From positions 5,725-69,724 of the IMG/VR virus record IMGVR_UViG_3300044960_000476: a DNA stretch of 64,000 bases, one strand, 5' to 3'. Position 1 is the stretch's first letter, and each line of letters begins with the position of its first letter. This document shows positions 1,335-19,983 of this stretch, piece after piece. The translations under genes were made by a program, and so were the position numbers. Under the pieces are notes generated by a model. It ran no database searches. It was not told the origin of the DNA and saw only the letters and a list, made by a program, of their open reading frames with translations. This stretch comes from a virus.

Positions 1335-2750
1335 TTACAGCGGTATATTTGACAAGTCGTCAAGCTCTTCAAAAGCGTCTTCAATGTCTACTGTAAAATT
1401 AGGCTCGACTGCGTGGGGTAATGCAGGGTTTTCCTCAGGCAAATACCAAGCAGCCATAGCCAAGCTAACTACCCTGTCATCTTTACCACGCCCCGCTGCA
1501 TGCATTTTAAGCGCACCCGACGGGGTGCGCTCATACACAAAGTCAGCAAACTCCTGAATGTATTCTTTGTCGTCAGGTAAAACAATACGTTGGTTTTCAA
1601 TAAGCAACGCTAGCTTGTTAATGTATTTTTCTTTTTCGACTGTCGTGCCAAAGTTAGCAGTCGACAAAGGAACGCCCATATTAGCCAGCTGCTCAGTAAG
1701 CGGGTCACCAATACCACGCGAGTCAACCACAACAAAAGAGTTGGGGTATTCGCGTTGTAGAGCAGCTAACTGATTAAGCTGGCGCTCCCAACTAACAGTA
1801 TTAAGTCGCTGCACACGAACAACAGTGCGTGTGTCTAAATTTAAGACAGTAAAAACGCTAAAGTCGTCTAAGCGAGCAAAGTCAGCACCAATTACATAAC
1901 GGTGAAATTTACTTTGTGTATTAATTGGCGTAACAAACAATTCGTTTTCCGTTTTGTGCCAAACTTTTTGTTTTGGGCATTCCCACAAACGTTGAAATAC
2001 TGAGCCTGAGTCAGGAATAAACTCTGCGCCATATTCTTGACGAAAAGCACGTTCAGGTTGAATTCGCTTTTGTTGCTCAAAAAACTCCGCAGAAACGTTT
2101 GGGTTTGCTTCCCATGTAGGAAGTTGCCAACAAGCGTATTGCGTATGGTTGGGCCAACCCGGTTTGTCTTTATATTCTAAAGCCGTCCTAAACAGTTCAT
2201 ATACCCAGTCATAACCTTTAGGCGTAGTAATAAGCAACACCCAACCTTGCGTCGTAGTCAATGTGGGCAACAAGCTTTCAAAAAACACTTGTTGGTCCGT
2301 CATTGCCGCTTCGTCCATGATTAGGTAGTCGAGGGTAGCACCACGCAAGTTATCGGGGTTGTCACTGGTTTTTCCCTGAAAGCGGCTAGTTGCTACAAAA
2401 CGGCCTTTGCTGTCGTAATGATGCACGTCTAGACGCATCATGCGCCGCGACAGCGATATTTCTCGTTTACCAGGAAGACGCTCGTGTGCCTTTTTAACCA
2501 TTTCCGCTACACGCTCAAAAACAAAAGTAGCTTGCTCGTAAGTTGGTGCAACTACCCAACCGCGAGAACCGTGGCTAAACAAAATTTCGTAAGCTGCCTC
2601 AACAGCAGCTATTTGGCTTTTACCAGACTGACGGCCTACTACTACAACCCTATATTGCGCCCAAGAGTCATGAACGGCTTGTTGGTAAGGATAAGGCTTA
2701 TAGTCGATAAGACGGAAAAAAGCTGAAGAGGGGGCATGTTTCCTAAGCAT
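1335..2750 (-). CDS. terL: Terminase large subunit
   Basis: Walker A GRQSGKS, VAPTYEQA, NLRGATLDYLIMDEAA (Walker B), TTPKG, nuclease IGADFARLDD and KDDRV. Closely resembles Thermus phage P74-26 TerL as I recall it. Confidence 0.97.
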   Translation of the reverse strand: MLRKHAPSSAFFRLIDYKPYPYQQAVHDSWAQYRVVVVGRQSGKSQIAAVEAAYEILFSHGSRGWVVAPTYEQATFVFERVAEMVKKAHERLPGKREISLSRRMMRLDVHHYDSKGRFVATSRFQGKTSDNPDNLRGATLDYLIMDEAAMTDQQVFFESLLPTLTTTQGWVLLITTPKGYDWVYELFRTALEYKDKPGWPNHTQYACWQLPTWEANPNVSAEFFEQQKRIQPERAFRQEYGAEFIPDSGSVFQRLWECPKQKVWHKTENELFVTPINTQSKFHRYVIGADFARLDDFSVFTVLNLDTRTVVRVQRLNTVSWERQLNQLAALQREYPNSFVVVDSRGIGDPLTEQLANMGVPLSTANFGTTVEKEKYINKLALLIENQRIVLPDDKEYIQEFADFVYERTPSGALKMHAAGRGKDDRVVSLAMAAWYLPEENPALPHAVEPNFTVDIEDAFEELDDLSNIPL

Positions 2751-5671: not shown

Positions 5672-5929
5672 ATGCTCAAAGTCAAGATGAATCAAAATGT
5701 CCTGAGCACGTTGAAATTCGTGGGTAAGACAATGTATAACGGTATCAGCATTACTTATCAACCGTGTATTTGGTCTCGTAAACGCGCAATTTCAATCAGC
5801 TTGCGCAATAAGGTTTTGGCGTATGGCGAGTTCGACGGCGACGGGGACGTAATTACGTTCCGTCTAGTGAGCCAAGATAAGTACTACGCCCAATTAGCAG
5901 CCAGGGTCATTCGGATGATTACCGAATGA
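5672..5929 (+). CDS. Hypothetical early protein
   Basis: GGAGGT RBS, 85 aa. Confidence 0.8.
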   Translation: MLKVKMNQNVLSTLKFVGKTMYNGISITYQPCIWSRKRAISISLRNKVLAYGEFDGDGDVITFRLVSQDKYYAQLAARVIRMITE

Positions 5930-5972: not shown

Positions 5973-6150
5973 GTTGCTTGTGCGCTGTGGCCTGTGGCGC
6001 GACAGCGTTGACGCTGATGCTGTCAACTCGGCCCAGGCTGTAGCGCTGACGCTTGGCCTAGCGCTGCTGGGCCGATGGCTTGGGCTTGGGCTTGGGCGAC
6101 GGCGGCGGCGGCGGCGCGCCCCGGCGGAGCCGGGCAAGGGCGCCTGTGAT

Positions 6151-6549
6151 GTAGTACACCTCTGATGTGGTACGACAAAACGCGGGCCGCAAAAGGGTCA
6201 GAGAATTTGATAGCCCCCCGGAGAGGCCCAACCCGCCCACCCAAAAGTAGTACACCAAAAGCAAAAACCGGACATGACTGAGGTAGTACGCCAGCGCTCG
6301 GCTGTGGTTGCCCCGCTCGTCCCACCACTCGCGGTCCGTACCACCCCCATCGCGCCCACCCTCAAAGGTGGTACACACGCACAGCGCGGTAGAGGTAGTG
6401 GTGGTTTTCTCTCACAAGGCTGAGGTAGTACACCCGGCGGGCCTTGACTGGCCCGCCCGCCCACCCTAAGGTAGTACACCGTCCATCAGCCGGTCCATGC
6501 GGGTGGCCGGTCCTGACTGGCCCGCCCACCCGCCCTTAGTTGGTACGCC
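6151..6549 (+). repeat. Cluster of GTRGTACRCC boxes with CCCGCCCACC boxes
   Basis: Copies at 6151, 6167, 6247, 6283, 6368, 6425, 6471 and about 6540, plus one inverted at 6338. Confidence 0.8.
6444..6472 (+). promoter_or_regulatory. Host sigma-A promoter upstream of the phage RNAP gene
   Basis: TTGACT-17 nt-TAAGGT. Confidence 0.55.
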
Positions 6550-6595
6550 CGCCGCCCACGAGAAAAACAAAAAACAAAAAACAAAAAAACAAAAA

Positions 6596-6621
6596 CGCCT
6601 ACCGGCGACTGACCAGCGGAG
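6596..6621 (+). promoter_or_regulatory. Hairpin motif copy (putative phage-RNAP promoter)
   Basis: CGCC-TACC-GGCG ACTGA CCAGCGG, preceded by A-tracts at 6563-6595. Confidence 0.55.
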
Positions 6622-6626
6622 CAAAA

Positions 6627-6788
6627 GAAAGGAGTGACAACTCCTTTCGCGGCAGCGCCGCCGCTACCGGCCTAGCACGGGCGGCCTGTCGGCGGTCAAG
6701 GGTTCGCTTCGCCCTTCGGCCCTTGACCGCCTGGCCGCCCGTGCTGGCCTCCGCTTAAGCGGCGCTGCCGCTATGCGAAAGGAGTTGT
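6627..6788 (+). promoter_or_regulatory. Structured 5' leader of the RNAP gene (about 150-nt rod pairing with the SD)
   Basis: Nested arms ACAACTCCTTTCGC/GCGAAAGGAGTTGT, GGCAGCGCCGC/GCGGCGCTGCC, AGCACGGGCGGCC/GGCCGCCCGTGCT, GGCGGTCAAGGG/CCCTTGACCGCC. Confidence 0.75.
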
Positions 6789-6796
6789 GGTAGAAG

Positions 6797-8926
6797 ATGG
6801 TAGAGAAACTAAGAAAAATAGTAACAGACAAAGAAGCTACCCTGGTAGAAAAGAAAAACGTTTACCAGGGTAAAATGGTCAATGGAGAGTGGCTACCAAC
6901 TTCTCTCCACGACCGTTATGGCAATATCGTCCGCGTCGTGAAGGTGGAGCGCGATGCGGACAATGAGCTCATTACCCCTGTCGCCAAGGTAGATACTGAA
7001 TTCGTCTTTGTAGGCGGTAACCGTCATCGGGCCGTCTACGTAAAAGAAGACAGCCTTGCCCGGTGGTTGGATGCCGCCGCCGGTGACTCCAACTGGGCTG
7101 CGGCTTCAATGCTGCGGCCCGGTAAGTTGACGAAAGAGAATAAAGAGTTTGGCTGGACGGGGTATGAGGAGTCCAGCCTCGACACCGGTCTTCTCGCCAT
7201 TATGTCGCGGGAAGACTGGACAGTATTCGTTCAGGCGTTCGGTCTACCTGTGGAGGCAAAGCTTGCACAGGTGACTGTCTTCGACCTGGATAACATGGTG
7301 TCCGCAAAGGGCACCATCAGGGTGGCGTTCAGCGGAGAGCACCCAACCGTCTTCCCAAGTTCGTGGAAGAGGTTTGGCGAACTGCGTACCGAGTTTTCCG
7401 CTGTCCTAACTGTTGACGCGGTATACCGCCCCCAAGCGTCTATTAATGCCCAGGAGCTGCAGTACTGGTGCTACAGCAGGGGGCGCAAGTTGGCGGATTG
7501 GGTCTGGGAGGAATTGGCCCAGGCCCAGGAAGCCGTCCTACAAGAAAAGGGGTCTGTATGGACCCCGTATGGATACTTGAGTGCCCTCGGTATGTCGGGG
7601 GCTTTAAAGTCCGTCACCTACGACCTGGTGGACGGGCAACGCGGCAGCTTAACCAATATGTTGCGACGGGTGAAGTTTAGCGCCCGTCGCGGTTTGCGGG
7701 CCAAAACGACCGCGACCGCCATCATTAAGGAAGGAGAAGTACTCCTTCCCGAAGAGGCGAAGCGGCACGTGCGGGTGGGGCAAACGGTTGTAGTAGGTAG
7801 AAACCCCGCGTTGCCTAGCCAGGACTGGCAGGTATACAAAGTCGCGGGGTTCATACCTGCTAACGTCGTTGCATTTAACCCGAACGACCGGGGCTGGACC
7901 GCCGAACTCGGTGGCGACCACGATGGCGATGACTGTGTAGTTTACTACCAGTCACCCGTCGTCGGCGGCGAACCAGTCGGGCAACACGGGCTTGACCTGC
8001 AAAGCATCAAGCCGCAAGCCCGCAAGTTGGACAGCAACACCGTTGAGGCTAGGCTTCAGCGGTGGAAGAACGAAACGGCCGCAAACATCGGGCAGTTCGA
8101 GATTAATGCCCGGCGTTTGTCAACCAAAGGGCACCTTACCACCGAGCGTGCCAAGTTGTTCACTACAGCCATTCAGACGGTAATTGCGTTGAAGAAGCGG
8201 GTGGCCAAGCTGGAAGAACAGGCTTGGTACCCGGCAGTCGACGAGCTGATGGACGCGGCCAGCCGGTTGAGGGGCAAGAACGACGCGGACCGTATTAAGC
8301 GGTTCGCAGCGGGCGAGGTCGAGCAACGGTTCGACAACCCCACGACCGCTGCGTTGGCCGAACAGCTGCGCGGGTCGTTGGCACTGGTGACCACCCGGCA
8401 CCGGTACAACGACAGCGAAGAAATGCGGGCGCTGTTCGGTGCCAATGCGGAAGCGCCCAGCATTGTCAAAAACATGCTGGAAGAATACTATAGCCTCCAG
8501 ACGGCCAAAGCCGAAGCCAAACTGATGGGGGCCGACGTCCACCACCTGAACCAGCGCTTGAAAGTGCTGGTGCATCTGGAAGGCCCCGAGGTGATGATGA
8601 CCCTCGATGAAGAGGCGTGGAAGCAGGCCAGCAAATGGCTGATAGCAAACGCGCCCACCGAGGTGTGGGTGTACTGGAGCCACCCCGAGGTCATCCGCGA
8701 GTTTCTGACCTTCGTGGGCGCGACTAAAATTCGCATCGTTGGGCCGGTGGAAGAAATAAAACTTGAGGTGGGCGAAGTCGTCGAAGTGGACCAAAGCGGA
8801 CTCCGCGAGCTGGTCATCGACGAACAGGAGTTCGTGGTGGCCGAAGAGACGGGCTACCTCGAAGCCGGGCGCTACCAGGTGGTGGCCGTGAGCAAGCGCG
8901 GCGCTACTCTCGAAAAAACAAAGTAG
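6797..8926 (+). CDS. Single-chain two-barrel RNA polymerase (cellular RdRP/YonO/P23-45 gp64-like)
   Basis: Double-psi-barrel motifs in order: AKGT, VVVGRNPALP and LGGDHDGDDCVV (DxDGD metal-binding loop); first large gene of the early region. Confidence 0.88.
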   Translation: MVEKLRKIVTDKEATLVEKKNVYQGKMVNGEWLPTSLHDRYGNIVRVVKVERDADNELITPVAKVDTEFVFVGGNRHRAVYVKEDSLARWLDAAAGDSNWAAASMLRPGKLTKENKEFGWTGYEESSLDTGLLAIMSREDWTVFVQAFGLPVEAKLAQVTVFDLDNMVSAKGTIRVAFSGEHPTVFPSSWKRFGELRTEFSAVLTVDAVYRPQASINAQELQYWCYSRGRKLADWVWEELAQAQEAVLQEKGSVWTPYGYLSALGMSGALKSVTYDLVDGQRGSLTNMLRRVKFSARRGLRAKTTATAIIKEGEVLLPEEAKRHVRVGQTVVVGRNPALPSQDWQVYKVAGFIPANVVAFNPNDRGWTAELGGDHDGDDCVVYYQSPVVGGEPVGQHGLDLQSIKPQARKLDSNTVEARLQRWKNETAANIGQFEINARRLSTKGHLTTERAKLFTTAIQTVIALKKRVAKLEEQAWYPAVDELMDAASRLRGKNDADRIKRFAAGEVEQRFDNPTTAALAEQLRGSLALVTTRHRYNDSEEMRALFGANAEAPSIVKNMLEEYYSLQTAKAEAKLMGADVHHLNQRLKVLVHLEGPEVMMTLDEEAWKQASKWLIANAPTEVWVYWSHPEVIREFLTFVGATKIRIVGPVEEIKLEVGEVVEVDQSGLRELVIDEQEFVVAEETGYLEAGRYQVVAVSKRGATLEKTK

Positions 8927-9316
8927 CGCCTCCGGCGCCCTTCCGGCGGGGGTTGGACCTAAAAAGGGTCCAACCCCCTAAACCATGCAGGCCGCCTGCC
9001 GGCGGCTTGCCAGCGGGGGCCAAAGCCCCCAAAGACAAAAGAAAAAGGGCGCCTGCCGGCGCCCTTCCTGCGGGGCCTGGCGGCCCAAGGAGGAAAAAAT
9101 GAAAAAAGAAATGAAAGAAAAAGTCCTCATGGTAGCGACGGCCGTGGCGTGGGGCCTGTTGGTCCCGGGCCTGGTCCTGGGGTTCCTGGTCGGCCTGGCC
9201 ATTTTCCGGGCCGTCTTGGGCTAAAACACAAAGGGGCGCCTCCGGCGCCTCTCCGGCGGGGGGTGTGAAGCCCCCAAGGCAAGAAGAAAGCCGCCTGCCG
9301 GCGCCGCCCAGCGGGG
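8926..9316 (+). repeat. Five copies of the hairpin motif CGCC-T(G)CC-GGCG-N4-5-CCNGCGGGG, each followed by a G-run stem-loop
   Basis: Copies start at 8926, 8991, 9049, 9236 and 9290; all intergenic and in the same orientation. Confidence 0.9.
9099..9224 (+). CDS. Small membrane protein (41 aa)
   Basis: AAGGAGG RBS; long hydrophobic segment VLMVATAVAWGLLVPGLVLGFLVGLAIF. Confidence 0.7.
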   Translation: MKKEMKEKVLMVATAVAWGLLVPGLVLGFLVGLAIFRAVLG

Positions 9317-9342
9317 CAGGAAAGCCCCGAAAGGAGGTAAAC

Positions 9343-9624
9343 ATGAAACTCATGGACGTAGTTTTGTTGGTGTGCCGTGCCCTCAGCCTGAACGTAGACA
9401 TCATTGCGACCCCAAACGGAGCAATGCTCACTGACGAAAAGGGCAGCCCCGTCGGGGTGATGCGGTTGGTCAATGGCCGCCGCCTGGAAATGGTTTACAG
9501 GAGCGGCAAAGGCGTGGTAAAGCAAGCCATCAGGCTTCCTAAGTTTGTCACCCGACCAATGCATGCGGGCGACAAGCTTCGGGCAGTCGCAGCTGTTGTC
9601 GTCGAGGAGGCGGCTATGGCTTAG
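9343..9624 (+). CDS. Early protein, paralog family E copy 1
   Basis: AAGGAGGT RBS before ATG 9343; MKLMDVVLLVCRAL...DEKGSPVGVMRL. Confidence 0.8.
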   Translation: MKLMDVVLLVCRALSLNVDIIATPNGAMLTDEKGSPVGVMRLVNGRRLEMVYRSGKGVVKQAIRLPKFVTRPMHAGDKLRAVAAVVVEEAAMA

Positions 9625-9683
9625 AGGGGCGCTGTGCCCCCTCGCATGAGGGGGTACGCCTCAGCTAAAGAAAGGGGGTAAAA

Positions 9684-9938
9684 ATGAAACCACGGTTGAT
9701 AGACATAGTGGCATTAGTTGCCCAAGCCATCCGGGGCGGTAAACACCGGGTGGCACTTGGGCCGCAAAAAACCGGTGGCGCTGTATTTGACGACGCGGGA
9801 GAGCCCGTTGGCCTGTTCAAGGTTGAGGGAGAAACACTCCACATCTCCTTGGACGTACACGGCCAAGTCGAGTACTACAAACTCGGCTTGGAAAGATACC
9901 TAAAACAACTTTCTCTGGCAAAGGGGGTAAGAGCATGA
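9684..9938 (+). CDS. Early protein, paralog family E copy 2
   Basis: AGGGGG RBS; RLIDIVALVAQAI...GGAVFDDAGEPVGLFKV. Confidence 0.8.
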   Translation: MKPRLIDIVALVAQAIRGGKHRVALGPQKTGGAVFDDAGEPVGLFKVEGETLHISLDVHGQVEYYKLGLERYLKQLSLAKGVRA

Positions 9939-10063
9939 AAAACGAAGAGGTGTGGGGTGTAATAACCTACTACCCGCCTTGCGCGGCAAAAAAGCAACGC
10001 CGCAATTGGCCTAGGTGGTTCAGATACACCATCCGCAGGCTGTTCAGGTTGAACCGCAAATAA
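9935..10063 (+). CDS. Small basic peptide (42 aa)
   Basis: ATGA overlap with the previous gene, AGGGGG RBS; MKNEEVWGVITYYPPCAAKKQRRNWPRWFRYTIRRLFRLNRK. Confidence 0.55.
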   Translation: MKNEEVWGVITYYPPCAAKKQRRNWPRWFRYTIRRLFRLNRK

Positions 10064-10074
10064 ACAGATAATGT

Positions 10075-10100
10075 GCGCCTCCGGCGCCGTCCGGCGGGCG
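10075..10100 (+). promoter_or_regulatory. Hairpin motif copy
   Basis: GCGCC-TCC-GGCGC CGT CCGGCGGG. Confidence 0.65.
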
Positions 10101-10128
10101 GTGCTGGAGGCCCAGAAAGGAGAAAACT

Positions 10129-10500
10129 ATGCTGGTAAACACCATCAAAGCAGCGGCCCAAGCTTTGGGCGTTAAGTCGGAACCGGAAGTAATTGTAAGC
10201 ACCCACCGTGGTGACACTCACTACGGTGGTGCGTATATGGCCACCGGCGGCATCCTGGAGAATGGGCGGCAAATTGGCCTCTTTAAGGCGGAAGAGAAGC
10301 GCGGTAAAACCGCCGTCGAGTTGCTGCTAAACACTCCATCAGGAGTAAAGAAAGCCTGCTTGAGGATATCAGCCCAGTTGGGCGAACTGAAATCCACCAG
10401 GGAAGGGTTGGCCTACACGGAAGGAATGGCCGCCAAGAACTGGTGGCCGACTGATGCGAGTGGACGGCGCTTCGAAAGCCGTCCGTTGCCCGAAGAATAA
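10129..10500 (+). CDS. Early protein, paralog family E copy 3 (divergent)
   Basis: AAAGGAG RBS; MLVNTIKAAAQAL...GGILENGRQIGLFKA. Confidence 0.75.
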   Translation: MLVNTIKAAAQALGVKSEPEVIVSTHRGDTHYGGAYMATGGILENGRQIGLFKAEEKRGKTAVELLLNTPSGVKKACLRISAQLGELKSTREGLAYTEGMAAKNWWPTDASGRRFESRPLPEE

Positions 10501-10526
10501 GCGCCTCCGGCGCCTGACCAGCGGGG
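10501..10526 (+). promoter_or_regulatory. Hairpin motif copy
   Basis: GCGCC-TCC-GGCGC CTGA CCAGCGGGG immediately after a stop codon. Confidence 0.65.
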
Positions 10527-10573
10527 TGTTCACGGAATGGGCCAACGTGGACACCCCCAAAAGCCTTTGGCCC
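10523..10573 (+). ncRNA. H-type pseudoknot in the 5' leader of the gene at 10589
   Basis: Stem 1 GGGGTGTTCACG/CGTGGACACCCC (one G.U); loop GGGCCAA (10539-10545) complementary to TTGGCCC (10567-10573) next to the SD. Confidence 0.55.
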
Positions 10574-10588
10574 GAAAGGAGAAAAAGT

Positions 10589-10804
10589 ATGGCCTATCTT
10601 TGGTTTCAAACCAGCACCTACCGCGGCCACATCCTTAACGAGGTGTGCGCAGACATCGAACCGGGCTTGCAAATGCTAGAGGAAGCCCTCGACAGCGGTA
10701 ATTTTGTCGAGGGATATGTCCGCGTGGGTAAAAGGAAGTACCCGTTCACGGACACGAATGCCAGCGACGTCATTGCTACTTTACTAGAGAGCAAAGTCAT
10801 TTAG
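10589..10804 (+). CDS. Hypothetical early protein (71 aa)
   Basis: AAAGGAG RBS before ATG 10589. Confidence 0.75.
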   Translation: MAYLWFQTSTYRGHILNEVCADIEPGLQMLEEALDSGNFVEGYVRVGKRKYPFTDTNASDVIATLLESKVI

Positions 10805-10823
10805 GGGTGGTTTATCCACCCTT

Positions 10824-10888
10824 GGGCCGCAAGCCTCCACCTCCACGTGGTGCGGCCTGGGAGCCCCGCAAGGGGAACTAACGGAGGC
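10824..10888 (+). ncRNA. HDV-like self-cleaving ribozyme
   Basis: P1 GGGCCGC/GCGGCCT (G1.U), P2 GCCTCC/GGAGGC, P3 ACC/GGT, L3 TCCACGT, P1.1 CC/GG, P4 CCCC-GCAA-GGGG, J4/2 CTAAC. Confidence 0.9.
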
Positions 10889-10906
10889 AAATGAAAGGAG
10901 TAAAGT

Positions 10907-11287
10907 ATGCTGAATGTAAAGCACATGTACCAGGGAGTTATTATCCGCACCCCTTACAGCAAGAAGGGGCAGGCTAAGACGGGCGACCACTTCACCACTT
11001 ACAGGGCTTTGGCTGATGAAGCGAGCAACCGTTGGCTTGACCTGTACGTCTTTGGCGACGAGGCGGTTTTGGCTGTGCTGCCTCAGAAGCTGCTGGTTCG
11101 CGGAAACGTTTCCGTGTTGAACCTGCCCCAAACCCAAGAACTGCCCGGAAAGACCATTCTTGGGGCAAACGCCCTCTCCCTGGAAGTTTGGGACAGGGGG
11201 AAAGGAAAATGGACCAAAATGGCCGCGTTCATCGCGGGCTTGGCGGCTAAAGCGGAGGCAGAGGAGGCAATTGAACTGGAGTTTTGA
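10907..11287 (+). CDS. Hypothetical early protein downstream of the ribozyme
   Basis: AAAGGAG RBS; 126 aa; acidic C-tail ending ELEF (SSB/OB-fold-like, tentative). Confidence 0.8.
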   Translation: MLNVKHMYQGVIIRTPYSKKGQAKTGDHFTTYRALADEASNRWLDLYVFGDEAVLAVLPQKLLVRGNVSVLNLPQTQELPGKTILGANALSLEVWDRGKGKWTKMAAFIAGLAAKAEAEEAIELEF

Positions 11288-11378
11288 GGGCCATAAGGCC
11301 CTCTCACTGAGGGGGTACACCCCCGCTAAATGCGGGGGAGTACTCCCTTGGTCAAAGGAGGTGGTACACCAGCCGGAA

Positions 11379-11389
11379 TGTGATATACT
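11379..11389 (+). promoter_or_regulatory. Extended -10 promoter facing the non-coding region
   Basis: TGTGATATACT. Confidence 0.5.
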
Positions 11390-11757
11390 AGTAAGCATGT
11401 AGTACGCTCTTGCGGAGCCAGGCAGGGGGCGGGGCGGCAGCCCCGCCCCCCTACTGTCTGCAAATAATTCTCTCCTTACTCTCCCATAGTTATTTTCAAA
11501 CACCCCCGGGGTGGGGGTACAAACCAGCCGAGTAGTGTCCGTTTGGACAAATGGCTAGCCTCTACTCGGCAAGGTGTGTCGACAGACTGGGGAGTAAGCT
11601 ATTTGGCTTACTCTCCAGTTGTTTCTATTTGCTATTTTCTATTTCCTGTTTGCTAACCCCGCGCGGGCAAGCTTGTGGCCTTTAAAGCGGTCGCGGTGGG
11701 CATGTTATCCAGCTTCGTCACAGACGTAAAAAATGAAGCTGACATTCAACAAACCCG

Positions 11758-12540: not shown

Positions 12541-12960
12541 CCTATAATAAGAGCAAAAAGCCCTATAAAGGGCTTTTTGCTCTCTACTAACTATTAGTTA
12601 GCTAACTACATGCTATATACTAGCTAACTAACAAGTTGTTAGTAAGCTAACTACATGCTTTATATATAACTATAATACGCTGTCGTGTGCTAGTATAATA
12701 TATAAGCTAACTAAAGGAGCTAAACCCTTAAAGGGTTTAGCTCCTAGTATATACTAGTATATTATATATATTTATATATTGTTTTTACTCATTACTATAT
12801 ACTAGCTAACTACATACTTTATACTAACCATCCCTATACTTTATACTAACTAGGAGCATTACCCTATAAAGGGTAATGCTCCTATATATACTTATTACTA
12901 GCTAACTACATGCTTTATATTAACCATCTACATGCTTTATACTAACCATTATAGGGGCAC
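12541..12960. other. Putative replication origin: very AT-rich, AGCTAACTA repeats, three palindromes
   Basis: No ORF. AGCTAACTA(CATGCT) six times; palindromes at 12550-12583, 12715-12745 and 12851-12884. Confidence 0.55.
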
Positions 12961-13011
12961 TACCAACTTTCGAAAATAAACCAACGCTGTCGGGCGCAAG
13001 GAGGGTAGCAA

Positions 13012-13710
13012 ATGACTGTTGAACAAGTTCATGAAATAGTGCGCAAGGTTTACCAAAGGTTAACAAGTATCAAGCAAGTCCAGTATGCTTACATTGGGCT
13101 TGCAGGTGGTTGTGCAGCATGGTTGGCGGGCAAGACAGCCCGCCAACCAAATGACATAGACATTTGGTTTTCAACCAAGCCAAGTTTGTTTAATATGGCT
13201 TGGAAAACTTTGGGTATAACCATAGACGACAATGCTCCAGTATACTTTGATGAAACTAGCGTCCACAAAGAGGTAATTGACGGGGTAGAGGTAAACGTTA
13301 TTGGCATTACTTGTTACTATTCATGGCGGTCGCCTGCAGAGCAATTAGAAAAGCTTATTTCCAGCTTTGACGTACCCCAACACCGTGTAGGGTATGTCAT
13401 TAACGACGGTGAGTTAGACATTTTCATTAACAGTCCGTATTACTATGACGAATGGACTGTCGCAACAATGCTGTGCGACAGCGATGAAGTAGTAACTAAA
13501 ACCAGTCGTGCATTTAAATTTAAACAAGCAGGTTACAAAATGTGCGACAGAATACAATTACTAGCACACATGTATGAAATGGGTGTTGACAGGCGTGTGC
13601 TGGTAACTAAGGACGGCGTTGGCCTGGACACTTGGGTAACGTGGGAAGAATTACCCGGTCATATAGCTAAGCTTGCCCTCGAAACGGCTACTACTAGGAC
13701 TAACCCATGA
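13012..13710 (+). CDS. Nucleotidyltransferase-like protein (Pol-beta superfamily head), catalytic DxD intact
   Basis: LAGGCAAWLAG...PNDIDIWF...FDVPQHRV...RAFKFKQAGY; AAGGAGGG RBS. Confidence 0.75.
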   Translation: MTVEQVHEIVRKVYQRLTSIKQVQYAYIGLAGGCAAWLAGKTARQPNDIDIWFSTKPSLFNMAWKTLGITIDDNAPVYFDETSVHKEVIDGVEVNVIGITCYYSWRSPAEQLEKLISSFDVPQHRVGYVINDGELDIFINSPYYYDEWTVATMLCDSDEVVTKTSRAFKFKQAGYKMCDRIQLLAHMYEMGVDRRVLVTKDGVGLDTWVTWEELPGHIAKLALETATTRTNP

Positions 13711-14414
13711 GCCGCGACAGCGTTAGAAGAAACCTGCTGGACTTGATAGGCAACGTAGTAATTACGTTGCAAGAAAAGTTAGACGGCATAAAGTACGAAT
13801 TGGCATTGTTTGGTGGTGCAGCTGCATGGCTTGTTCACCAAACCAAGCGCATACCGGACAACTTCAACATTAGCATTAACGTTCATCACAATGAAGTTGT
13901 AAAGGTATTAGAACGTCTTAAAATAGACTATGACAGAACATACCAACCTTTCTTTTACAAAACTTCCATTCACGTCTGTAACTTTCCTGTACGCTTAGTA
14001 GTAGCCAAACCACGTTATTCTTCTGCTAAAGGCAATGTACATGCGGAATATCTGTCGTCGTTGCTTGATATTCCGCAACACAGGGTAGTGTTAATTAATT
14101 TGGGAGGTAAATACCAATGCCACTTTTCAGCGCCATTCATGTTTGCCTGGTCCCATGAGTGGACCAGGCAAACAATGTGCCGTGGTATGGTGTACCACCT
14201 CAAGACTAGTTCGACAAGAATATTGCGGGCGGTGCAGGACGGATACAAAGTATCCGACGAAATAAGGCACTTAGGCTTGCCCGCCGAAGTTGGGCTTAAC
14301 ATTAATTACCTTGTGGAAAGGGGGTTAATTAAAACTAAGTACGGCGTGTTTGCTTGGGAAGAGATACCCGAGTTTGTGTCGAAGCTAACGCTAATGGGGG
14401 CAAATGATGCGTAA
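13707..14414 (+). CDS. Nucleotidyltransferase-like paralog 2, DxD replaced by NxN
   Basis: LFGGAAAWL...PDNFNISI...LDIPQHRV. Confidence 0.75.
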   Translation: MSRDSVRRNLLDLIGNVVITLQEKLDGIKYELALFGGAAAWLVHQTKRIPDNFNISINVHHNEVVKVLERLKIDYDRTYQPFFYKTSIHVCNFPVRLVVAKPRYSSAKGNVHAEYLSSLLDIPQHRVVLINLGGKYQCHFSAPFMFAWSHEWTRQTMCRGMVYHLKTSSTRILRAVQDGYKVSDEIRHLGLPAEVGLNINYLVERGLIKTKYGVFAWEEIPEFVSKLTLMGANDA

Positions 14415-15102
14415 AAAAGTCGAACAAGTGCTCCGCTACATTGACAAAACGTTGAAAAAGAAAAACATACCTTACAGGAGCATAATACTGTTTGGCGGTG
14501 CAGCAGCTTATCTGGCTGGCGCAACACAGCGCCAGCCAGACAACATAAATGTCGCCATTTGCACTCATCCAGCACGCCACGACAGCGTTTTATTGGCTTT
14601 GAAAGTAAAAGACTTGCCAATGGCTAAAGCCCATAAAATTCACCGAAAAATAGACATAGACGGCACGGAAGTACGGCTCGAAATAAGCTCGGCATGGCAC
14701 CACAGTACAAAGGCTGCCCACCGCCATGCTGAACATATTTGTTCATTGGTAGACGTGCCGCAACACAGGGTAGTCTATCATTGGGACGGTAGACTAACCG
14801 GTCCAGAATATTACTACTACGCTCCTTATTGGAGCAAAGAAAGCATGACGCAAACTAAGGCCGGTATTAATACCGATACATTGCGTATTGCTAAATTCAA
14901 GAGAGAAAACTATGCCATGTCTGACGACATAGCTATGTTTGCGTTGTTGGGAGAATTGGGCATTCTTGTTGACCTGTGGGTCAGCGAAATGCATATTCTG
15001 ACAACGTATGGCTTTATTGAATGGGACGAAATAACTGACTTTGTGCTCAAAGTAGCCATGATGCACAAAGGAGCACAAAATGAACAGGAAAACAATAGTT
15101 AA
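14404..15102 (+). CDS. Nucleotidyltransferase-like paralog 3, DxD replaced by NxN
   Basis: LFGGAAAYLAG...PDNINVAI...VDVPQHRV. Confidence 0.75.
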   Translation: MMRKKVEQVLRYIDKTLKKKNIPYRSIILFGGAAAYLAGATQRQPDNINVAICTHPARHDSVLLALKVKDLPMAKAHKIHRKIDIDGTEVRLEISSAWHHSTKAAHRHAEHICSLVDVPQHRVVYHWDGRLTGPEYYYYAPYWSKESMTQTKAGINTDTLRIAKFKRENYAMSDDIAMFALLGELGILVDLWVSEMHILTTYGFIEWDEITDFVLKVAMMHKGAQNEQENNS

Positions 15103-15760
15103 CGTATTGCACGCAATAGACGATAAGCTATACGCGTTATACCCAAAACGCTATGCTAGCATGCTGCTCTATGGTGGTGCTGCAGCTTGGTTGGCGGGCG
15201 TGACCAAGCGCCCGCCAACCAACATTAACGTGGCAATTAGCGCCGCGCCTTCATACATTGAGCCCATTTTGAAGGCATTGGGCTTGGAGCAAAACGCCAA
15301 ATTTTACCCACACCAGAGTAAAGCACGTATTCAAATTGACGGCATTGACGTGCTCATGTACATTAGCTCGCCCTGGTATTACCACCAAGACGTTGCTAAG
15401 CGTCATGCTATGCACGTCTGCTCTCTTTTCGACGTACCACAACACCGGGTAGTAATGCATTACCAAAACGGACTAAGTGAGCCGGTTTATTGTGGTTGGG
15501 CGGACACTTGGTCTAGAGAAACCATGTGTAACAGTTACTTGGACGTTTGCACCAATACCATGCGTATTTACAAATTCCTGCAGGCGGGTTATTCCATGTC
15601 TAGCGAAATAGCATTGCTTGGTACATTAGGCTCCCTCGGCATTTCAAAAAACATATGGGCTAACCAACACGGCATTACAGTATCGGACGACTGGATAGGC
15701 TGGAATGAGTTGCCAACGTTTGTATGCCAAGTAGCAATGTCGACAGACACAAGTCAATAA
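15080..15760 (+). CDS. Nucleotidyltransferase-like paralog 4, DxD replaced by NxN
   Basis: LYGGAAAWLAG...PTNINVAI...FDVPQHRV...RIYKFLQAGY. Confidence 0.75.
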   Translation: MNRKTIVNVLHAIDDKLYALYPKRYASMLLYGGAAAWLAGVTKRPPTNINVAISAAPSYIEPILKALGLEQNAKFYPHQSKARIQIDGIDVLMYISSPWYYHQDVAKRHAMHVCSLFDVPQHRVVMHYQNGLSEPVYCGWADTWSRETMCNSYLDVCTNTMRIYKFLQAGYSMSSEIALLGTLGSLGISKNIWANQHGITVSDDWIGWNELPTFVCQVAMSTDTSQ

Positions 15761-15769
15761 GCCGAATGG

Positions 15770-15795
15770 GCGCCTCCGGCGCCTCTCTGACGGGG
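15770..15795 (+). promoter_or_regulatory. Hairpin motif copy between the two paralog arrays
   Basis: GGCGCC-TCC-GGCGCC TCTCTGACGGGG. Confidence 0.6.
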
Positions 15796-15802
15796 TGAAA
15801 AC

Positions 15803-16237
15803 ATGTACAAGCTAGTAAAGTCACTACCTGTGGCGACAGAAATGCCAAGTAAAGACGAATTGCTTCATCAAAGGCGTAAACTCTTTTACTTGGTAGAGGC
15901 CACGCATAAACTGGTCAAACACTTGGCGGGCGACATCGGTAAGCCCCGTACATGGTCTGTGTACTTTACGCGGGAAACACAGCTGGAAAAAATGTTTTAC
16001 GTCAGTTACAGCTACCACATTCCCACCAACCCATACGAACAGCTAATTATTGCCTCGGCTATAACTGACGCTTTTGAATTACCGCGTGGAGTAAACCCGG
16101 CTCTAGGAAAGAAGTGGAAGCGTAACATTCGCTTTTACGTACCATGCACAACTGACGAAGGCGTGCAGACAATAGTAGAAGCAACAAGAAAGTTGGAGGA
16201 GCAGCTATGGGCGTTAAACCAAGAATTGAACAGCTGA
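15803..16237 (+). CDS. Paralog family B copy 1, unknown function
   Basis: MYKLVKSLPV...SAITDAFEL...FYVPCTTDEG. Confidence 0.75.
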   Translation: MYKLVKSLPVATEMPSKDELLHQRRKLFYLVEATHKLVKHLAGDIGKPRTWSVYFTRETQLEKMFYVSYSYHIPTNPYEQLIIASAITDAFELPRGVNPALGKKWKRNIRFYVPCTTDEGVQTIVEATRKLEEQLWALNQELNS

Positions 16238-16509
16238 TGCAGGAAGCAAAAAGCAGAGGGGCTCGGCTGTATGCCGAGCTAAATGCTTTCCTAGGCACCA
16301 CAACTCCAGGACACCAAGAAATAAGCATAAAAATATTGCCCGATAAAACTGCTGTATACTATTGTCTGTATTTGGTCAAACCAGAAGCGTACTTCGTAAT
16401 ATACGCCATGTCTTTGTTTGACCATGAATTCGGCATTGTGCCTGATGCGGAGAAAATTGGCGAGAATGTACTTCTGTCGGGCTTAGTAGGGTGGGTTAAA
16501 CATGATTAG
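16207..16509 (+). CDS. Hypothetical protein
   Basis: Fills the operon with overlaps at both ends; GGAGGAG RBS. Confidence 0.6.
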   Translation: MGVKPRIEQLMQEAKSRGARLYAELNAFLGTTTPGHQEISIKILPDKTAVYYCLYLVKPEAYFVIYAMSLFDHEFGIVPDAEKIGENVLLSGLVGWVKHD

Positions 16510-16915
16510 AGAAACGTTCAGTAAACTACCTGTCCGCAAACGCCGCCCGCCTATGAGTTTTGTAGAAGAGCAGTACAAACACTTGAACCAAGTTATTAAC
16601 GAAGCGCTTACTATTCACGAACGTAATTGTCCTAGCCAATACCATTGCGTGCACTACATTTACCAAATGAAGGAGCCTCATGAGTTTTATTTTCGAATTG
16701 ACGTGGAAAGTGACGCTTACGACGACGAATTCTCCATTTTAGCAACCAAAGCGTCTTTAACTGAAATATTCGGGCTGGAAAGTCCGCCAGTCTTTATGCA
16801 AACTGCTGTGGCTAGCACCTTGCGTTTTACCCTTTACGCTCCAATTACCACCAAAAAGGGCTTGAGAATGCTCAACAGCTTAAGAAATAAGCTAAAGGCG
16901 GGTAAACATGATTAA
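16502..16915 (+). CDS. Paralog family B copy 2
   Basis: SKLPVRK...ASLTEIFGLESPP...LYAPITTKKG. Confidence 0.8.
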   Translation: MIRETFSKLPVRKRRPPMSFVEEQYKHLNQVINEALTIHERNCPSQYHCVHYIYQMKEPHEFYFRIDVESDAYDDEFSILATKASLTEIFGLESPPVFMQTAVASTLRFTLYAPITTKKGLRMLNSLRNKLKAGKHD

Positions 16916-17351
16916 GAAGCTGCTTGATGACTTGCCTGTGCGCAAAGGCAAGTCAACAAAGAAATTTTTAGAAGAGGAGTATTATTACCTCAACCAACTC
17001 ATATACTTGGCGCTTATTCTCCACGAGTTCAAATGCAATGCCAAATTCTACCCCTTTTTCTCTATTTTCAAGGTGGGAGCGTCCAACGAATGTTACTTTG
17101 GAATTGACGTCCAAAGCGTTGTCCCTGACGAAGAATTCTTTATGCTACACAGTCAAGCATCGCTAATGGAAATATTTGGCTTAGAAAGCGCCCCAACGGT
17201 ATTTACTAATAAACTTCGTCGTATTTCACGTTTTCTTATTTACGCCCCACTTACTACCCAAAGGGGCTTAACCATGCTTCACGACATGATAAATAAACTG
17301 CAAAAGGAGGTAAAACATGTACAAGCTGCTGCAAAAGCTACCGATAAATAA
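16908..17351 (+). CDS. Paralog family B copy 3
   Basis: DDLPVRK...ASLMEIFGLESAP...IYAPLTTQRG. Confidence 0.8.
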   Translation: MIKKLLDDLPVRKGKSTKKFLEEEYYYLNQLIYLALILHEFKCNAKFYPFFSIFKVGASNECYFGIDVQSVVPDEEFFMLHSQASLMEIFGLESAPTVFTNKLRRISRFLIYAPLTTQRGLTMLHDMINKLQKEVKHVQAAAKATDK

Positions 17352-17727
17352 CCGCTACACGTGGATGGACGTAATGGACCAAAAGAACATTATGTCCGCG
17401 TTAATGCTGCTCCACCATGACTTAATTGTCGCTAGAGTTGGACGGTTGGGTAGGCCGCGCGACTACTTTATTCGTAGAAGCAGCAGCGCAAAAGTTCATG
17501 AGAGGTTCTTTTGGCTAACCTACCGCTTTGCAACGCCAAAGAATGAGTTTGACGTCCTTCAAATGCAAAGCGCGCTGGTAGAAGTGTTTGAGTTGCCAAA
17601 AGTACCTAAAATGGGTAAAGGCTATTACTCAACCATTGGCTTCTATGCGCCCATAACGACAGAAGAAGGGAGAAAACAGTTAGAGGAATACAAATGGTGG
17701 CTAACAAGCAAGCTAGCAAACGGCTAA
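17317..17727 (+). CDS. Paralog family B copy 4
   Basis: MYKLLQKLPI...SALVEVFEL...FYAPITTEEG; AGGAGGT RBS. Confidence 0.8.
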   Translation: MYKLLQKLPINNRYTWMDVMDQKNIMSALMLLHHDLIVARVGRLGRPRDYFIRRSSSAKVHERFFWLTYRFATPKNEFDVLQMQSALVEVFELPKVPKMGKGYYSTIGFYAPITTEEGRKQLEEYKWWLTSKLANG

Positions 17728-17810
17728 AGGGGTGAAAAATGTAAACAAAGTGCAGTAGTGTAGTAAAGTCGGCCAATCGGCAACAAGCTTTAATTTAAAG
17801 GAGGAATGTT

Positions 17811-18824
17811 ATGAACTGGAACCAGGCTCTTAAAGTGCTTAAGGCTAACTTGGAAGCTCAGGCTAATGGGCTGAAGACGGCGGCTATGTTGTGGGGGCCG
17901 CCTGGCGTTGGGAAGAGCGACATGGTGTTGGCTGCTGCTGAATTGCTCAGCAAGCCGCTTCCTGTCGAGGAAATTCGTTTGTCCACTCTTTCCAACGTCG
18001 ACGTGCGTGGGTTGCCTTACCGCGACGGCGACACCGTTAAGTTCAGCAAGCCCATTTTTGTGCGTGACGAGCCTACTCTCTACTTCTTTGATGAGGTAAA
18101 TACCGCCCCGCCTTCTAACCAAGTCGTGGCTTACGAAATTGCGCTCAACCACCGTATTGGCGGCCATAAGTTGGCACCGGGTAGTGTCGTCGTCATGGCG
18201 GGTAACCGTAGTGTTGACAAGGGCGCTACCTTTGCTATGCCTGTCCCGCTTCGCAACCGTATGCAACACATTACGGTGGAGCCGGACGTTGACACCACTT
18301 TCAAGTATGGGCTTGAAAGGGGTTGGGACAGCAACCTTCTTGCTTTCCTGAAGTTTAAGCCCTCTCTGCTGTTCCAGCCGCCTGCTGGTGACCAAGAAGC
18401 TTTCCCTACTCCGCGTAGTTGGGCTTTCGTCAATGCTATTCTCAACTACGACGACAGCTTGGCTAGCTTGGCGGGCTTTGTGGGCGAAGGCGCAGCTAGC
18501 GAATTCTTGGCTTTCCGTCGTTTGGCTCAAGAATTGCCCAACCTGGACAACGTGCTTAAGACTGGACAGCCCTTTGTCAGCGAAAAGCTCGACGTCATGT
18601 ATGCTTACGTAGTCGGGCTGTCGCAACGTGTGCTCTCCCGCAAGGCTGACAAGGACACGCTTCTCACTTACTCCAAGCTTCTTCAGGCTTTGGGCAAGAC
18701 TCATCCCGAGCTTGTTCCTATTGCCATTCTTGCGCTCGGGAATACCAAGCACCAACAAGTAGCCATTACCCTTCCCGAATACCGCGAGCTGTTCAAGCTT
18801 GTTAATGGTGCCATGAACGTTTAA
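17811..18824 (+). CDS. MoxR-family AAA+ ATPase
   Basis: WGPPGVGKS, FFDEVNTA, MAGNR, PLRNR, FPTPRSW. Confidence 0.93.
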   Translation: MNWNQALKVLKANLEAQANGLKTAAMLWGPPGVGKSDMVLAAAELLSKPLPVEEIRLSTLSNVDVRGLPYRDGDTVKFSKPIFVRDEPTLYFFDEVNTAPPSNQVVAYEIALNHRIGGHKLAPGSVVVMAGNRSVDKGATFAMPVPLRNRMQHITVEPDVDTTFKYGLERGWDSNLLAFLKFKPSLLFQPPAGDQEAFPTPRSWAFVNAILNYDDSLASLAGFVGEGAASEFLAFRRLAQELPNLDNVLKTGQPFVSEKLDVMYAYVVGLSQRVLSRKADKDTLLTYSKLLQALGKTHPELVPIAILALGNTKHQQVAITLPEYRELFKLVNGAMNV

Positions 18825-18834
18825 GGGGGTAACC

Positions 18835-19983
18835 ATGCTTAGTTTCGCTAATAAGCTCCGCCGGGCTCGAACGAGCCTGGCGGTGCATGAGCCGTTTCTC
18901 GCGCATCTGTCGTTTCACACGCCGGTGTATGAGTCAACAGACGGCGACACGGCTTGGACTGACGGTAAGTCGGTGTGGTTTAACCCAAAGTTTGCGGAGC
19001 AGCTTACTCCAGCCGAATTTACGTTTGTCTACGCCCACGAGTTGCTTCACAAGGCATTTCTACACGTAGCACGCCTTAAAGAAAGAAAGCACCTTATTTG
19101 GAACATGGCAACCGACTATGTTATCAACGACATACTGCAGGACCAAGCTAATGCGTTCGTTGGTAACAGTCCGTTCATGAGTGCGCCTCAAGGCGTGCTG
19201 CTCGACAGCAGGTTCAAAAACATGACTGCTGAGCAGGTTTATGACTTGCTCATGCAGGAAGCTGAAGAGCATTTGAAGCAAATTGGCATCAACGCTAACG
19301 ACTTGCGTCCGGGTAAGGACGGCATGGGCGGCCTAAGCGATGCTGAAATGGCCGAAATTAAGCAGCAGGTTGCTTCGGCTGCTCAGTCTGCTAAAATGCA
19401 GGGTAAGTTGCCTATTGGTGTAGCCCGCCTTGTTGACCAGCTTCTTTACCCCACCCGCGACTGGCGTAACGAACTGCTTGCGTTTGTGCAGCAGTTTCCT
19501 GCTGACTACGGTTATTCCCCACCCGACCGCCGTTTTACCGACGGCGAGTTTTTCTTGCCCGCTTTGCAGGGTGAGAAAATTGAAATTTGGGTAGCCATTG
19601 ACACTTCGGGTTCAATTGACAAGAAAACTCTAACGCGCTTTGTTAGCGAAGTGCAGGGTATTTTGTCAGGTTTTGACTTCGTGCATGGTAAACTAATTAC
19701 GTGTGACGCTCAGGTGCATGAAGTCGTCGACTTTGCATCTAGCGACGGCATGGCTAACGTGTTTAACAAGCTTCAATTAAAGGGTGGTGGTGGTACTGCT
19801 TTCCATCCCGTTTGGGAAATTGACGGAGAGCGCCCTGCAGCCTGTATTTACTTTACTGACGGCTACGGTGACTTTGGTAATGAGCCACCTTTCCCTGTGT
19901 TGTGGGCTGTCATCGAAAACGGGCTTCCTCTGGACAAGTTTCCTTACGGTAAGGCTATTAGCGTGGCTTTAGAGCACTTGTGA
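18835..19983 (+). CDS. DUF2201-type metallopeptidase plus VWA protein (MoxR partner)
   Basis: TAWTDG, HELLH, WNMATDYVIN, MIDAS DTSGS, GGGGT, FTDG. Confidence 0.9.
   Translation: MLSFANKLRRARTSLAVHEPFLAHLSFHTPVYESTDGDTAWTDGKSVWFNPKFAEQLTPAEFTFVYAHELLHKAFLHVARLKERKHLIWNMATDYVINDILQDQANAFVGNSPFMSAPQGVLLDSRFKNMTAEQVYDLLMQEAEEHLKQIGINANDLRPGKDGMGGLSDAEMAEIKQQVASAAQSAKMQGKLPIGVARLVDQLLYPTRDWRNELLAFVQQFPADYGYSPPDRRFTDGEFFLPALQGEKIEIWVAIDTSGSIDKKTLTRFVSEVQGILSGFDFVHGKLITCDAQVHEVVDFASSDGMANVFNKLQLKGGGGTAFHPVWEIDGERPAACIYFTDGYGDFGNEPPFPVLWAVIENGLPLDKFPYGKAISVALEHL

Follow-up and report, generated by a model that had tools for sequence, protein, structure and literature searches.

Proteins with the nucleotidyltransferase (NTase) fold are defined by three motifs, hG[GS], [DE]h[DE]h and h[DE]h, and in the Pol-beta superfamily the carboxylates hold the catalytic metals. 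Here we examined an array of four overlapping genes, whose products are predicted to have this fold, in a 64,000-nucleotide (nt) stretch of the IMG/VR virus record IMGVR_UViG_3300044960_000476 (positions 5,725 to 69,724 of the record), to which we refer as the window. Only the first gene (copy 1) encodes an intact Asp-x-Asp (DxD) motif; copies 2, 3 and 4 encode asparagine at both positions (NxN), and this state looks old and maintained rather than decaying. What is new is a very small unmodelled family in which one DxD gene stands together with several conserved NxN genes.

The nearest solved architecture, according to our models, would be found in class II CCA-adding enzymes, as their head plus neck. 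Motifs of these enzymes, namely GGxVRD, DxxRRD (motif B) and E(D)DxxR (motif D), with a role in ribose recognition for motif B, are described in PMC2910056 and PMC12166844. Among viruses, the NTases of Autographiviridae phages (phiKMV ORF16, LKD16 ORF16, gh-1 and PP2) are proteins of about 180–230 amino acids (aa) with a CCA-head-like fold. In some phages they are annotated as members of the Gad2 family, as stated in a 2026 preprint. Gad2 (PF26128), by which phages counter the Gabija defence, has a predicted NTase domain, and reviews still describe its mechanism as unknown. We found no description in the literature of a phage array with one DxD and several NxN NTase paralogs, the supplementary homolog lists of the Gad2 preprint aside. 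An earlier note on this DNA, made from the sequence alone, had put the array forward as a candidate for an undescribed system; this is too strong, since phages and giant viruses commonly have short CCA-head-like NTases, some of which carry the Gad2 family annotation.

The four genes lie on the same strand over positions 13012–15760 (+) of the window and, in its listing of open reading frames (ORFs), encode 226–235 aa each. The following features were read from the ORF list, the alignment of the copies and the sequence itself.

12999..13004, plus strand: Shine-Dalgarno sequence AGGAGG, 7 nt 5′ of the copy 1 ATG
13012..13710, plus strand: copy 1, 232 aa, isoelectric point (pI) 5.3, with GG at 32–33, D48-I-D50 and FDVPQHRV at 119–126
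13153..13161, plus strand: codons GAC ATA GAC for D48, I49 and D50 of copy 1
13707..14414, plus strand: copy 2, 235 aa, pI 9.3, with N52-F-N54
13860..13868, plus strand: codons AAC TTC AAC for the NFN of copy 2
14404..15102, plus strand: copy 3, 232 aa, pI 8.7, with N47-I-N49
14542..14550, plus strand: codons AAC ATA AAT for the NIN of copy 3
15080..15760, plus strand: copy 4, 226 aa, pI 7.7, with N48-I-N50
15221..15229, plus strand: codons AAC ATT AAC for the NIN of copy 4

The successive overlaps between copies 1 to 4 are 4, 11 and 23 nt. Clear AGGAGG/AAGGAG ribosome sites precede copies 1 and 4, and copy 2 starts within an ATGA that overlaps the stop of copy 1 and has a weak ribosome site of its own. 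These four copies are exactly the members of the family in the whole 69,724-base virus record.

The four copies are paralogs, with a likeness far beyond chance (BLASTP E-values of 1e-22 for copy 1 against copy 2 and 2e-60 for copy 3 against copy 4). In the four-way alignment, the other copies showed 28–32% identity to copy 1 and 31 columns were invariant. The latter include, in copy 1 numbering, G32, G33, A35, A36, L38, T42, R44 and P46, which make up GG.AA[WY]L...T.R.P, as well as D120, P122, Q123, H124, R125 and V126 in D[VI]PQHRV, and W211 and E213 in W.E[LI]. The carboxylate motif of copy 1, with its flanking residues, is N-DID-I. Copies 2, 3 and 4 have D-NFN-I, D-NIN-V and T-NIN-V, respectively, and both motif-A carboxylates are present in copy 1 only. 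The ORF list, the alignment and the codons bear out what the earlier note had claimed on these points, namely four overlapping ORFs of 226–235 aa with shared motifs, of which only the first has DID and the others NFN, NIN and NIN.

AlphaFold2, with a 10-sequence family alignment as input, gave confident models for copy 1 (predicted local distance difference test, pLDDT, 91.0; predicted template-modelling score, pTM, 0.85) and copy 4 (pLDDT 88.6, pTM 0.85), which have an identical order of secondary-structure elements and contain the alpha/beta core fold of the Pol-beta superfamily. A Foldseek search against PDB returned 37 matches at E ≤ 0.001 (best E 2.5e-5) over 195–224 alignment columns; ranks 1–5 were titled 'tRNA processing enzyme', rank 6 and others were CCA-adding enzymes, and ANT(4′), TM1012 and FAM46 followed. 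A second structure search, VIA-wide and independent of Foldseek, covered 48,161 chains, with a background of Z 7–8 as stated by the tool. For copy 1, just 4 of the 48,161 chains reached Z ≥ 8, which were FAM46B 6jyj (9.1, 196 residues aligned), FAM46C (8.7), 4wby (8.3) and 1miv (8.2). For copy 4, 7 chains did so in the first pass, the best being 1miv_A, the CCA-adding enzyme of Bacillus stearothermophilus (Z 10.2, 183 residues aligned, root-mean-square deviation 4.9), followed by 4wby, 9kma, 3h37 and FAM46B. A second-look search placed the Thermotoga CCA-adding enzyme 3h3a_B first (Z 9.7, 194 of 232 residues aligned). Among the matches listed for copies 1 and 4, essentially all were NTase-fold proteins, and RsfS and mitoribosome assembly factors were also found by the Foldseek-independent search.

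Since these matches span the whole protein, agree for two paralogs and fit the sequence motifs, we accepted the NTase fold. Thus, the Pol-beta/CCA-adding head fold that the earlier note had proposed is supported by the models and by both structure searches. As to the defining motifs, the hG[GS] loop is present as GG 32–33 in all four copies (in two distant relatives described below, P0008 and P0009, it reads GS and GH), whereas the [DE]h[DE]h signature is found in copy 1 only, so that copies 2–4 would have the fold without the catalytic signature.

The modelled copies align with class II CCA-adding enzymes (1miv, 3h37/3h3a, 4wby and 9kma; also 5hc9) along their head plus neck, with Z 8.2–10.2 over 173–194 of 226–232 residues. 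Both groups have the element order strand, GG, helix and DxD strand, and the conserved Asp motif of the family, about 70 residues after DxD, resembles motif B. Unlike the CCA-adding enzymes, the family has GG[AC]AA[WY]L instead of GGxVRD, a motif B reduced to [FL]D[VI]PQHRV with no Arg-Arg, and no EDxxR. It also ends after a neck-like domain with no tRNA-binding body or tail (the matched chains have 344–517 aa), and 3 of the 4 copies are without DxD. The PolyA_pol hidden Markov model (PF01743) gave no match at E ≤ 10 for any of 10 family members. A stretch T162-x-T-x-R166 was considered, by its spacing, as the CCA motif D and dropped, as its register was not fixed by the aligned ranges. The likeness to FAM46/TENT5 (6jyj; Z 9.1 with 196 residues aligned for copy 1, Z 8.6 with 191 for copy 4) is to eukaryotic proteins with about 330 aligned-chain residues, which show 8–12% identity and no sequence-level relation to the family.

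Viral proteins were matched as well. Among the BFVD viral models, PS3 'Poly A polymerase head', PP2, LKD16 and Lullwater 'tRNA nucleotidyltransferase' were found with E 8e-5 to 3e-3, together with many giant-virus proteins and phage proteins named 'nucleotidyl transferase'; for the Autographiviridae NTases named above, E was 1.5e-4 to 3e-3 and the template-modelling score (TM) 0.39–0.56. In an alignment of seven autographivirid NTases (LKD16, PJNP013, phiKMV, PP2, gh-1, Henninger and MR12), GG, R-D, P-x-D-x-D, a V-D-L strand and F-D-[YFA]-[TN]-[LI]-N were invariant, and 'LDTFDYTLNQI' of LKD16 ORF16 is resembled by 'LDTFDVPQHRV' of P0005, a relative of copy 1. Unlike in the present family, DxD is present in 7 of the 7 together with a third Asp that is invariant, and there is one such gene per fetched locus. 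The ESM Atlas offered leads rather than tests: structure neighbours of copy 1 were PolyA_pol/CCA clusters (TM 0.54–0.60), and 20 of its 30 feature neighbours were in viral clusters carrying Pfam Gad2, with Gad2 in 50% of the members of the best such cluster. On the side of sequence profiles, that of the four copies matched 5uvd in PDB, a 'nucleotidyltransferase-like protein', with E 0.0046 over the GG...DxD head. This match was lost with the 10-sequence profile, and copy 4 alone had no PDB match. SpoIIIAG, the sole PDB match of the 10-sequence profile (E 0.51), was dismissed as chance. The family is not demonstrably a member of PolyA_pol or Gad2. It is best described as a very small, unmodelled and highly divergent branch that appears to belong to the CCA-head-like viral NTases.

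When 1.84 billion representatives were searched exhaustively with the profile, 7 proteins were detected at E ≤ 0.001; a word-indexed search for relatives detected 5. A further homolog search of the family added P0008 and P0009 only, and a homolog search seeded with LKD16 ORF16 gave 2 proteins. Among 50,697 phage records searched by tblastn with copy 1, nothing relevant was found (12 records, best E 3), nor with blastn against phage records, and searches for related loci in viral, metagenome and genome contigs confirmed no locus. The relatives are as follows.

P0002: 96% identity to copy 4 (8 of 226 residues differ), NIN
P0004: full-length, 67% identity to copy 4, NIN
P0005 / P0014: 53% identity to copy 1, DID
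P0006: 34% identity to copy 1, NID
P0008 / P0015: 274 aa, DVD
P0009: 275 aa, NLS
P0007: copy-2-like fragment, no motif entry

Among the 10 aligned sequences, 3 have DxD, 1 has NxD, 5 have NxN and 1 has NxS, and all 10 share M1, G32, A35, A36, R44, P46, V94, D120, P122, H124, R125, T162, Y175 and I181. The motifs that line the cleft are therefore conserved whatever the state of the carboxylates.

We then asked how the NxN state has persisted. Between the paralogs of the window, the proportion of synonymous differences (pS) was 0.67–0.81, which is saturated, and that of nonsynonymous differences (pN) was 0.41–0.52; the saturation indicates that the duplications are old. N-x-N was found in 5 of 5 NxN sequences (copies 2, 3 and 4, P0002 and P0004). 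Both asparagines use AAC or AAT codons in copies 2–4, at which one A-to-G change would restore Asp, and since both persist despite this easy reversion they appear to be constrained, as unconstrained positions would drift. P0004 retains every family motif at 67% identity to copy 4. A contig of 2,254 nt from run X1 includes the start of a copy-4-like gene at 82% nucleotide identity, and among the 18 listed of the 27 differences in a 154-nt piece of it, the residues of P0004 are reproduced exactly; 11 of these 18 fall in codons with the residue unchanged, against 7 in 5 changed codons. As this piece is the most conserved N-terminal part, the excess of silent changes is biased toward constraint and overstates it, but it excludes neutrality in that piece.

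A maximum-likelihood tree placed, with weak support, (P0006,(copy 1,P0005)) apart from ((copy 4,P0002),(P0004,(copy 2,copy 3))), which would be compatible with a single ancient loss of the carboxylates followed by duplication. Given the saturated paralog distances, the NxN and motifs kept in 5 of 5 sequences, the ortholog at 67% and the 11 against 7 codon changes, the view of the earlier note that NxN is maintained and not decaying holds up. Copies 2–4 could in principle be decaying duplicates, that is, pseudogenes in the making or neutral passengers, as decay usually starts with catalytic residues being lost and copy 2 has the longest branch. We give this almost no credence, and it is already contradicted: all copies are full-length open frames despite saturated synonymous sites, 31 columns are invariant among the four, the 96% and 67% orthologs keep NIN and all motifs, and silent changes dominate in the ortholog DNA that is visible (the 18 listed of 27 differences).

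Position 87 bears on the third metal ligand. An acidic residue stands there only in the two DID proteins of the copy 1 clade, Glu in copy 1 and Asp in P0005; every NxN sequence has Ile, and the NID sequence has Phe. E87 is hence a candidate third carboxylate of copy 1, and if it is one, the NxN copies would be without all three metal ligands and copy 1 would have all three. A joint MAFFT alignment with the autographivirid NTases was rejected for placing this residue, as the GG loop and the hairpin strands were misaligned.

Perhaps copies 2–4 are still catalysts, with an Asn-bound metal, other acidic residues or other chemistry, and the four genes represent four specificities, comparable to the split CC- and A-adding enzymes. 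In favour of this, the NxN copies show full conservation of the GG loop and of the motif-B-like D-P-Q-H-R, and copies 2 and 3 have an Asp directly before the first Asn. This Asp is missing from copy 4 and P0004, which have Thr, and no conserved acidic substitute for the lost carboxylates, of the kind that the earlier note had regarded as fatal to its idea, was found in the family alignment. Given also that both motif-A carboxylates are replaced in 5 of 5 NxN sequences, that the candidate third is Ile and that it is the carboxylates that hold the catalytic metals in this superfamily, catalysis by copies 2–4 seems very improbable.

The opposite possibility is that none of the four is an enzyme, and that the NTase fold serves as a binding scaffold, for instance as a sponge for nucleotides or RNA ends or as an inhibitor of a host protein, with the DID as a relic or as a metal or ligand site. 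The residue following the invariant V94 is Asn in copy 1 and P0005, and Glu (V-E-N) in P0008 only, which would favour this possibility if that is the catalytic position. It also agrees with the occurrence of DxD, NxD, NxN and NxS states while the rest of the cleft is conserved, and non-catalytic proteins with the NTase fold, such as RsfS and mitoribosome assembly factors, are established elsewhere. On the other hand, D48, D50 and an acidic residue 87 are all common to copy 1 and P0005, at only 53% identity, and DVD is also kept in P0008/P0015. We consider it unlikely that the array is devoid of an enzyme.

The set of genes differs among relatives. The run X1 contig joins a copy-1-like gene (P0005) straight to the copy-4-like gene, with 330 letters of its own in between. 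It skips 1,701 nt, in which copies 2 and 3 lie together with the last part of copy 1 and the initial bases of copy 4. A second match coding for DVPQHRV lies about 690 nt further on in this contig, which is one gene length. For P0004 (NIN), P0014 (DID) and P0006 (NID), the longest contig reported is 15,123 nt in each case, and they are probably on one and the same contig. It appears that a related phage carries a different set, still with one intact and several degenerate members.

A closer strain, co-occurring in run X5, is 99.6% identical over 13297–14134 (3 differences in 838 nt, in copies 1 and 2) and 94–97% identical over 14220–17669, where copies 3 and 4 and an array of small paralogs downstream differ by 3–6% (9 differences in 303, 77 in 1,889 and 75 in 1,239 nt, by piece). 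The second small paralog contains a +1/−1 indel pair (16799 and 16807). This mosaic divergence suggests recombination or a local hotspot, and from the pattern of identity the downstream part of the locus would be a hotspot of variation.

These gene sets have to be set against the possibility of an obligate hetero-oligomer, in which copy 1 is the catalytic subunit and copies 2–4 are structural or specificity subunits, as in pairs of active and inactive paralogs elsewhere. The overlaps of 4, 11 and 23 nt and the weak ribosome site of copy 2 fit coupled, nearly equimolar synthesis; one DxD member beside dead members occurs apparently in two diverged phages; and copy 1, with a pI of 5.3, is complementary in this respect to the others, with 7.7–9.3. 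In the relative, the order is DID directly followed by NIN with a further member upstream, compared with DID-NFN-NIN-NIN in the window, and as the number and kind of dead partners vary in this way, a fixed 1:1:1:1 assembly is unlikely. Moreover, what is conserved in the dead copies belongs to the nucleotide-binding cleft (GG, R-x-P and D-P-Q-H-R) rather than to an obvious new interface. We regard an obligate complex as doubtful. A complex prediction for the four copies with copy 1 as partner gave a score of 0.00 and a mark of 0.32, which speaks neither for nor against binding.

Our preferred explanation, in which we have about even confidence, is that the array consists of one probable enzyme and of diversifying non-catalytic binders or blockers that act in host takeover or counter-defence. 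It builds on the paralogy, the fold, the motif states, the constraint, the co-orientation and overlap of the genes and the turnover of the array. Copy 1 would most likely be an active nucleotidyltransferase, with the 3′ end of an RNA or some other hydroxyl as its acceptor. Copies 2–4 would derive from an ancestor in which both carboxylates changed to Asn and the E87 position to Ile, so that two-metal catalysis was presumably lost while purifying selection appears to keep the GG loop, R44-x-P46 and D-[VI]-P-Q-H-R. They would most likely bind a ligand (a nucleotide, a nucleic-acid end or a host protein) and not turn it over. The paralogs may act separately, alongside the one enzyme, because gene content varies among the relatives and yet the pattern of one intact and other dead members persists, and a role in counter-defence is suggested by the position of the locus, its turnover and the precedent of Gad2.

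A more specific and rather improbable version is that the NxN proteins are metal-free 'pseudo-nucleotidyltransferases' of counter-defence, with Asn in place of the metal ligands and the nucleotide or 3′-end pocket of an NTase kept, the targets being tuned in each paralog and the DxD copy modifying or repairing the same target. Immune signalling nucleotides might be sequestered in this way, or RNA or tRNA ends or host NTase toxins capped or shielded.

Several observations weigh against the preferred explanation of one enzyme with separate binders. We infer the activity of copy 1, the ligand binding of copies 2–4 and the counter-defence role from sequence, models and analogy. The structural Z values are just moderately over the tool's background of 7–8, and links to named families are weak: Pfam, PHROG, NCBIfam and PADLOC gave no match above noise for the four copies and their relatives. 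With hhalign, the family matched the autographivirid NTases weakly (E 8.8e-4, probability 23%) over 55 columns of the GG..P.DID region only. The likeness to Gad2 is by fold and annotation only, with about 400 aa in Gad2 against 226–235 aa here. The Atlas feature neighbours of copy 3, which have low feature counts, are AbiEii/DUF6036-type NTases and not Gad2. Past the beta3-beta4 turn, the strand of copy 1 is V-N-V, as against the V-D-L that is invariant among the autographivirid NTases, and if the site after V94 is the catalytic one, copy 1 would miss one of the three carboxylates and only P0008 would be complete. The support of the tree is weak (64/92), the gene contexts of the relatives are known from fragments only, and the tight gene overlaps, a sign of translational coupling, also fit a stoichiometric complex.

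The locus amounts to a natural experiment, with one member that keeps the carboxylates and three in which they are exchanged for Asn, all of them conserved. If the NxN copies bind the ligand of copy 1, they could reveal what this group of viral NTases recognises, and they could show whether catalysis is needed for the biological effect, which bears on counter-defence by viral NTases in general. If they are merely diverged accessory proteins, they would be a modest addition to the catalogue of viral families with the NTase fold.

The window covers most of the genome of a tailed hot-spring phage similar to phiFa and P23-45. The public runs holding the stretch are labelled as hot-spring and microbial-mat metagenomes, with no RNA runs among those listed. 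The following features lie around the array.

1335-2750, minus strand: large terminase
6797-8926: 709-aa ORF with RdRP (two-barrel) PF05183 as the sole Pfam match, E 7.9e-5, below the gathering score
15803..17727, plus strand: second tandem array, of four 136–147 aa paralogs, downstream of the NTase array (ORF list)
17811-18824, plus strand: AAA+ (MoxR/dynein-type) ATPase
18835-19983, plus strand: DUF2201 metallopeptidase/vWA-like protein

Other genes of the window encode a DnaB-like helicase, a PD-(D/E)XK nuclease, a family A DNA polymerase and tail-fibre-like proteins. The DUF2201 protein is closest to that of Thermus phage phiFa (44% identity), and the gene order of phiFa matches: RNA polymerase, small genes, AAA+ ATPase, DUF2201 and replication genes. 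A 701-aa 'RNA polymerase' is annotated in phiFa, syntenic to the 709-aa ORF of the window. At the place of the array, phiFa has phiFa_35 and phiFa_36, which were ruled out as relatives of it (hhalign E 0.61 and 0.75); with unrelated genes at the syntenic place, the array would occupy a variable accessory slot between the early genes and the replication module. No terminator-like site was found on the plus strand between 12435 and 18000, and so the four copies and the array of small paralogs are probably one transcription unit. The array most likely consists of accessory early or middle genes.

Besides phiFa, several hundred phage records conserve the AAA+/DUF2201 pair, many of them with hosts that include Escherichia, Klebsiella, Pseudomonas and Vibrio, and its annotation as 'HNH endonuclease' is a frequent error. 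The 709-aa ORF lies in a block of 54–59% G+C (6000–11500) within a genome of about 45% G+C.

The small paralogs at 15803–17727 are 21–33% identical and basic (pI 8.9–9.8), and share L-P towards the N-terminal end and Y-[AV]-P-x-T-T-x-x-G towards the C-terminal end; an ORF of 100 aa (16207–16509) interrupts their array. No Pfam or PHROG match was found for them. When the array was examined for a partner of the MNT-HEPN/AbiE type, the small neighbours were thus without a Pfam or PHROG match, and AbiEii clusters appeared only as low-feature Atlas neighbours of copy 3. The 'YSVTTP' ending of phiFa_36 resembles the small paralogs by eye, and hhalign of phiFa_35 and phiFa_36 detected no significant relation.

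Upstream of copy 1 by 130 nt, at 12852–12882, there is a near-perfect palindrome of 31 nt with the arm AGGAGCATTACCCT, an ATA centre and the complementary arm. It sits in an AT-rich repeat field, with promoter-like hexamer pairs 'TTTATA..TATACT' at 12818–12847 and 12914–12943. Opposite the AAA+ ATPase gene, in antisense, there is a 348-aa open frame at 17790–18836 (−); most likely it is no gene but a shadow ORF, owing to the higher G+C of the coding strand. Among the tail genes, a 2,999-aa ORF was identified at 50699–59698 (−).

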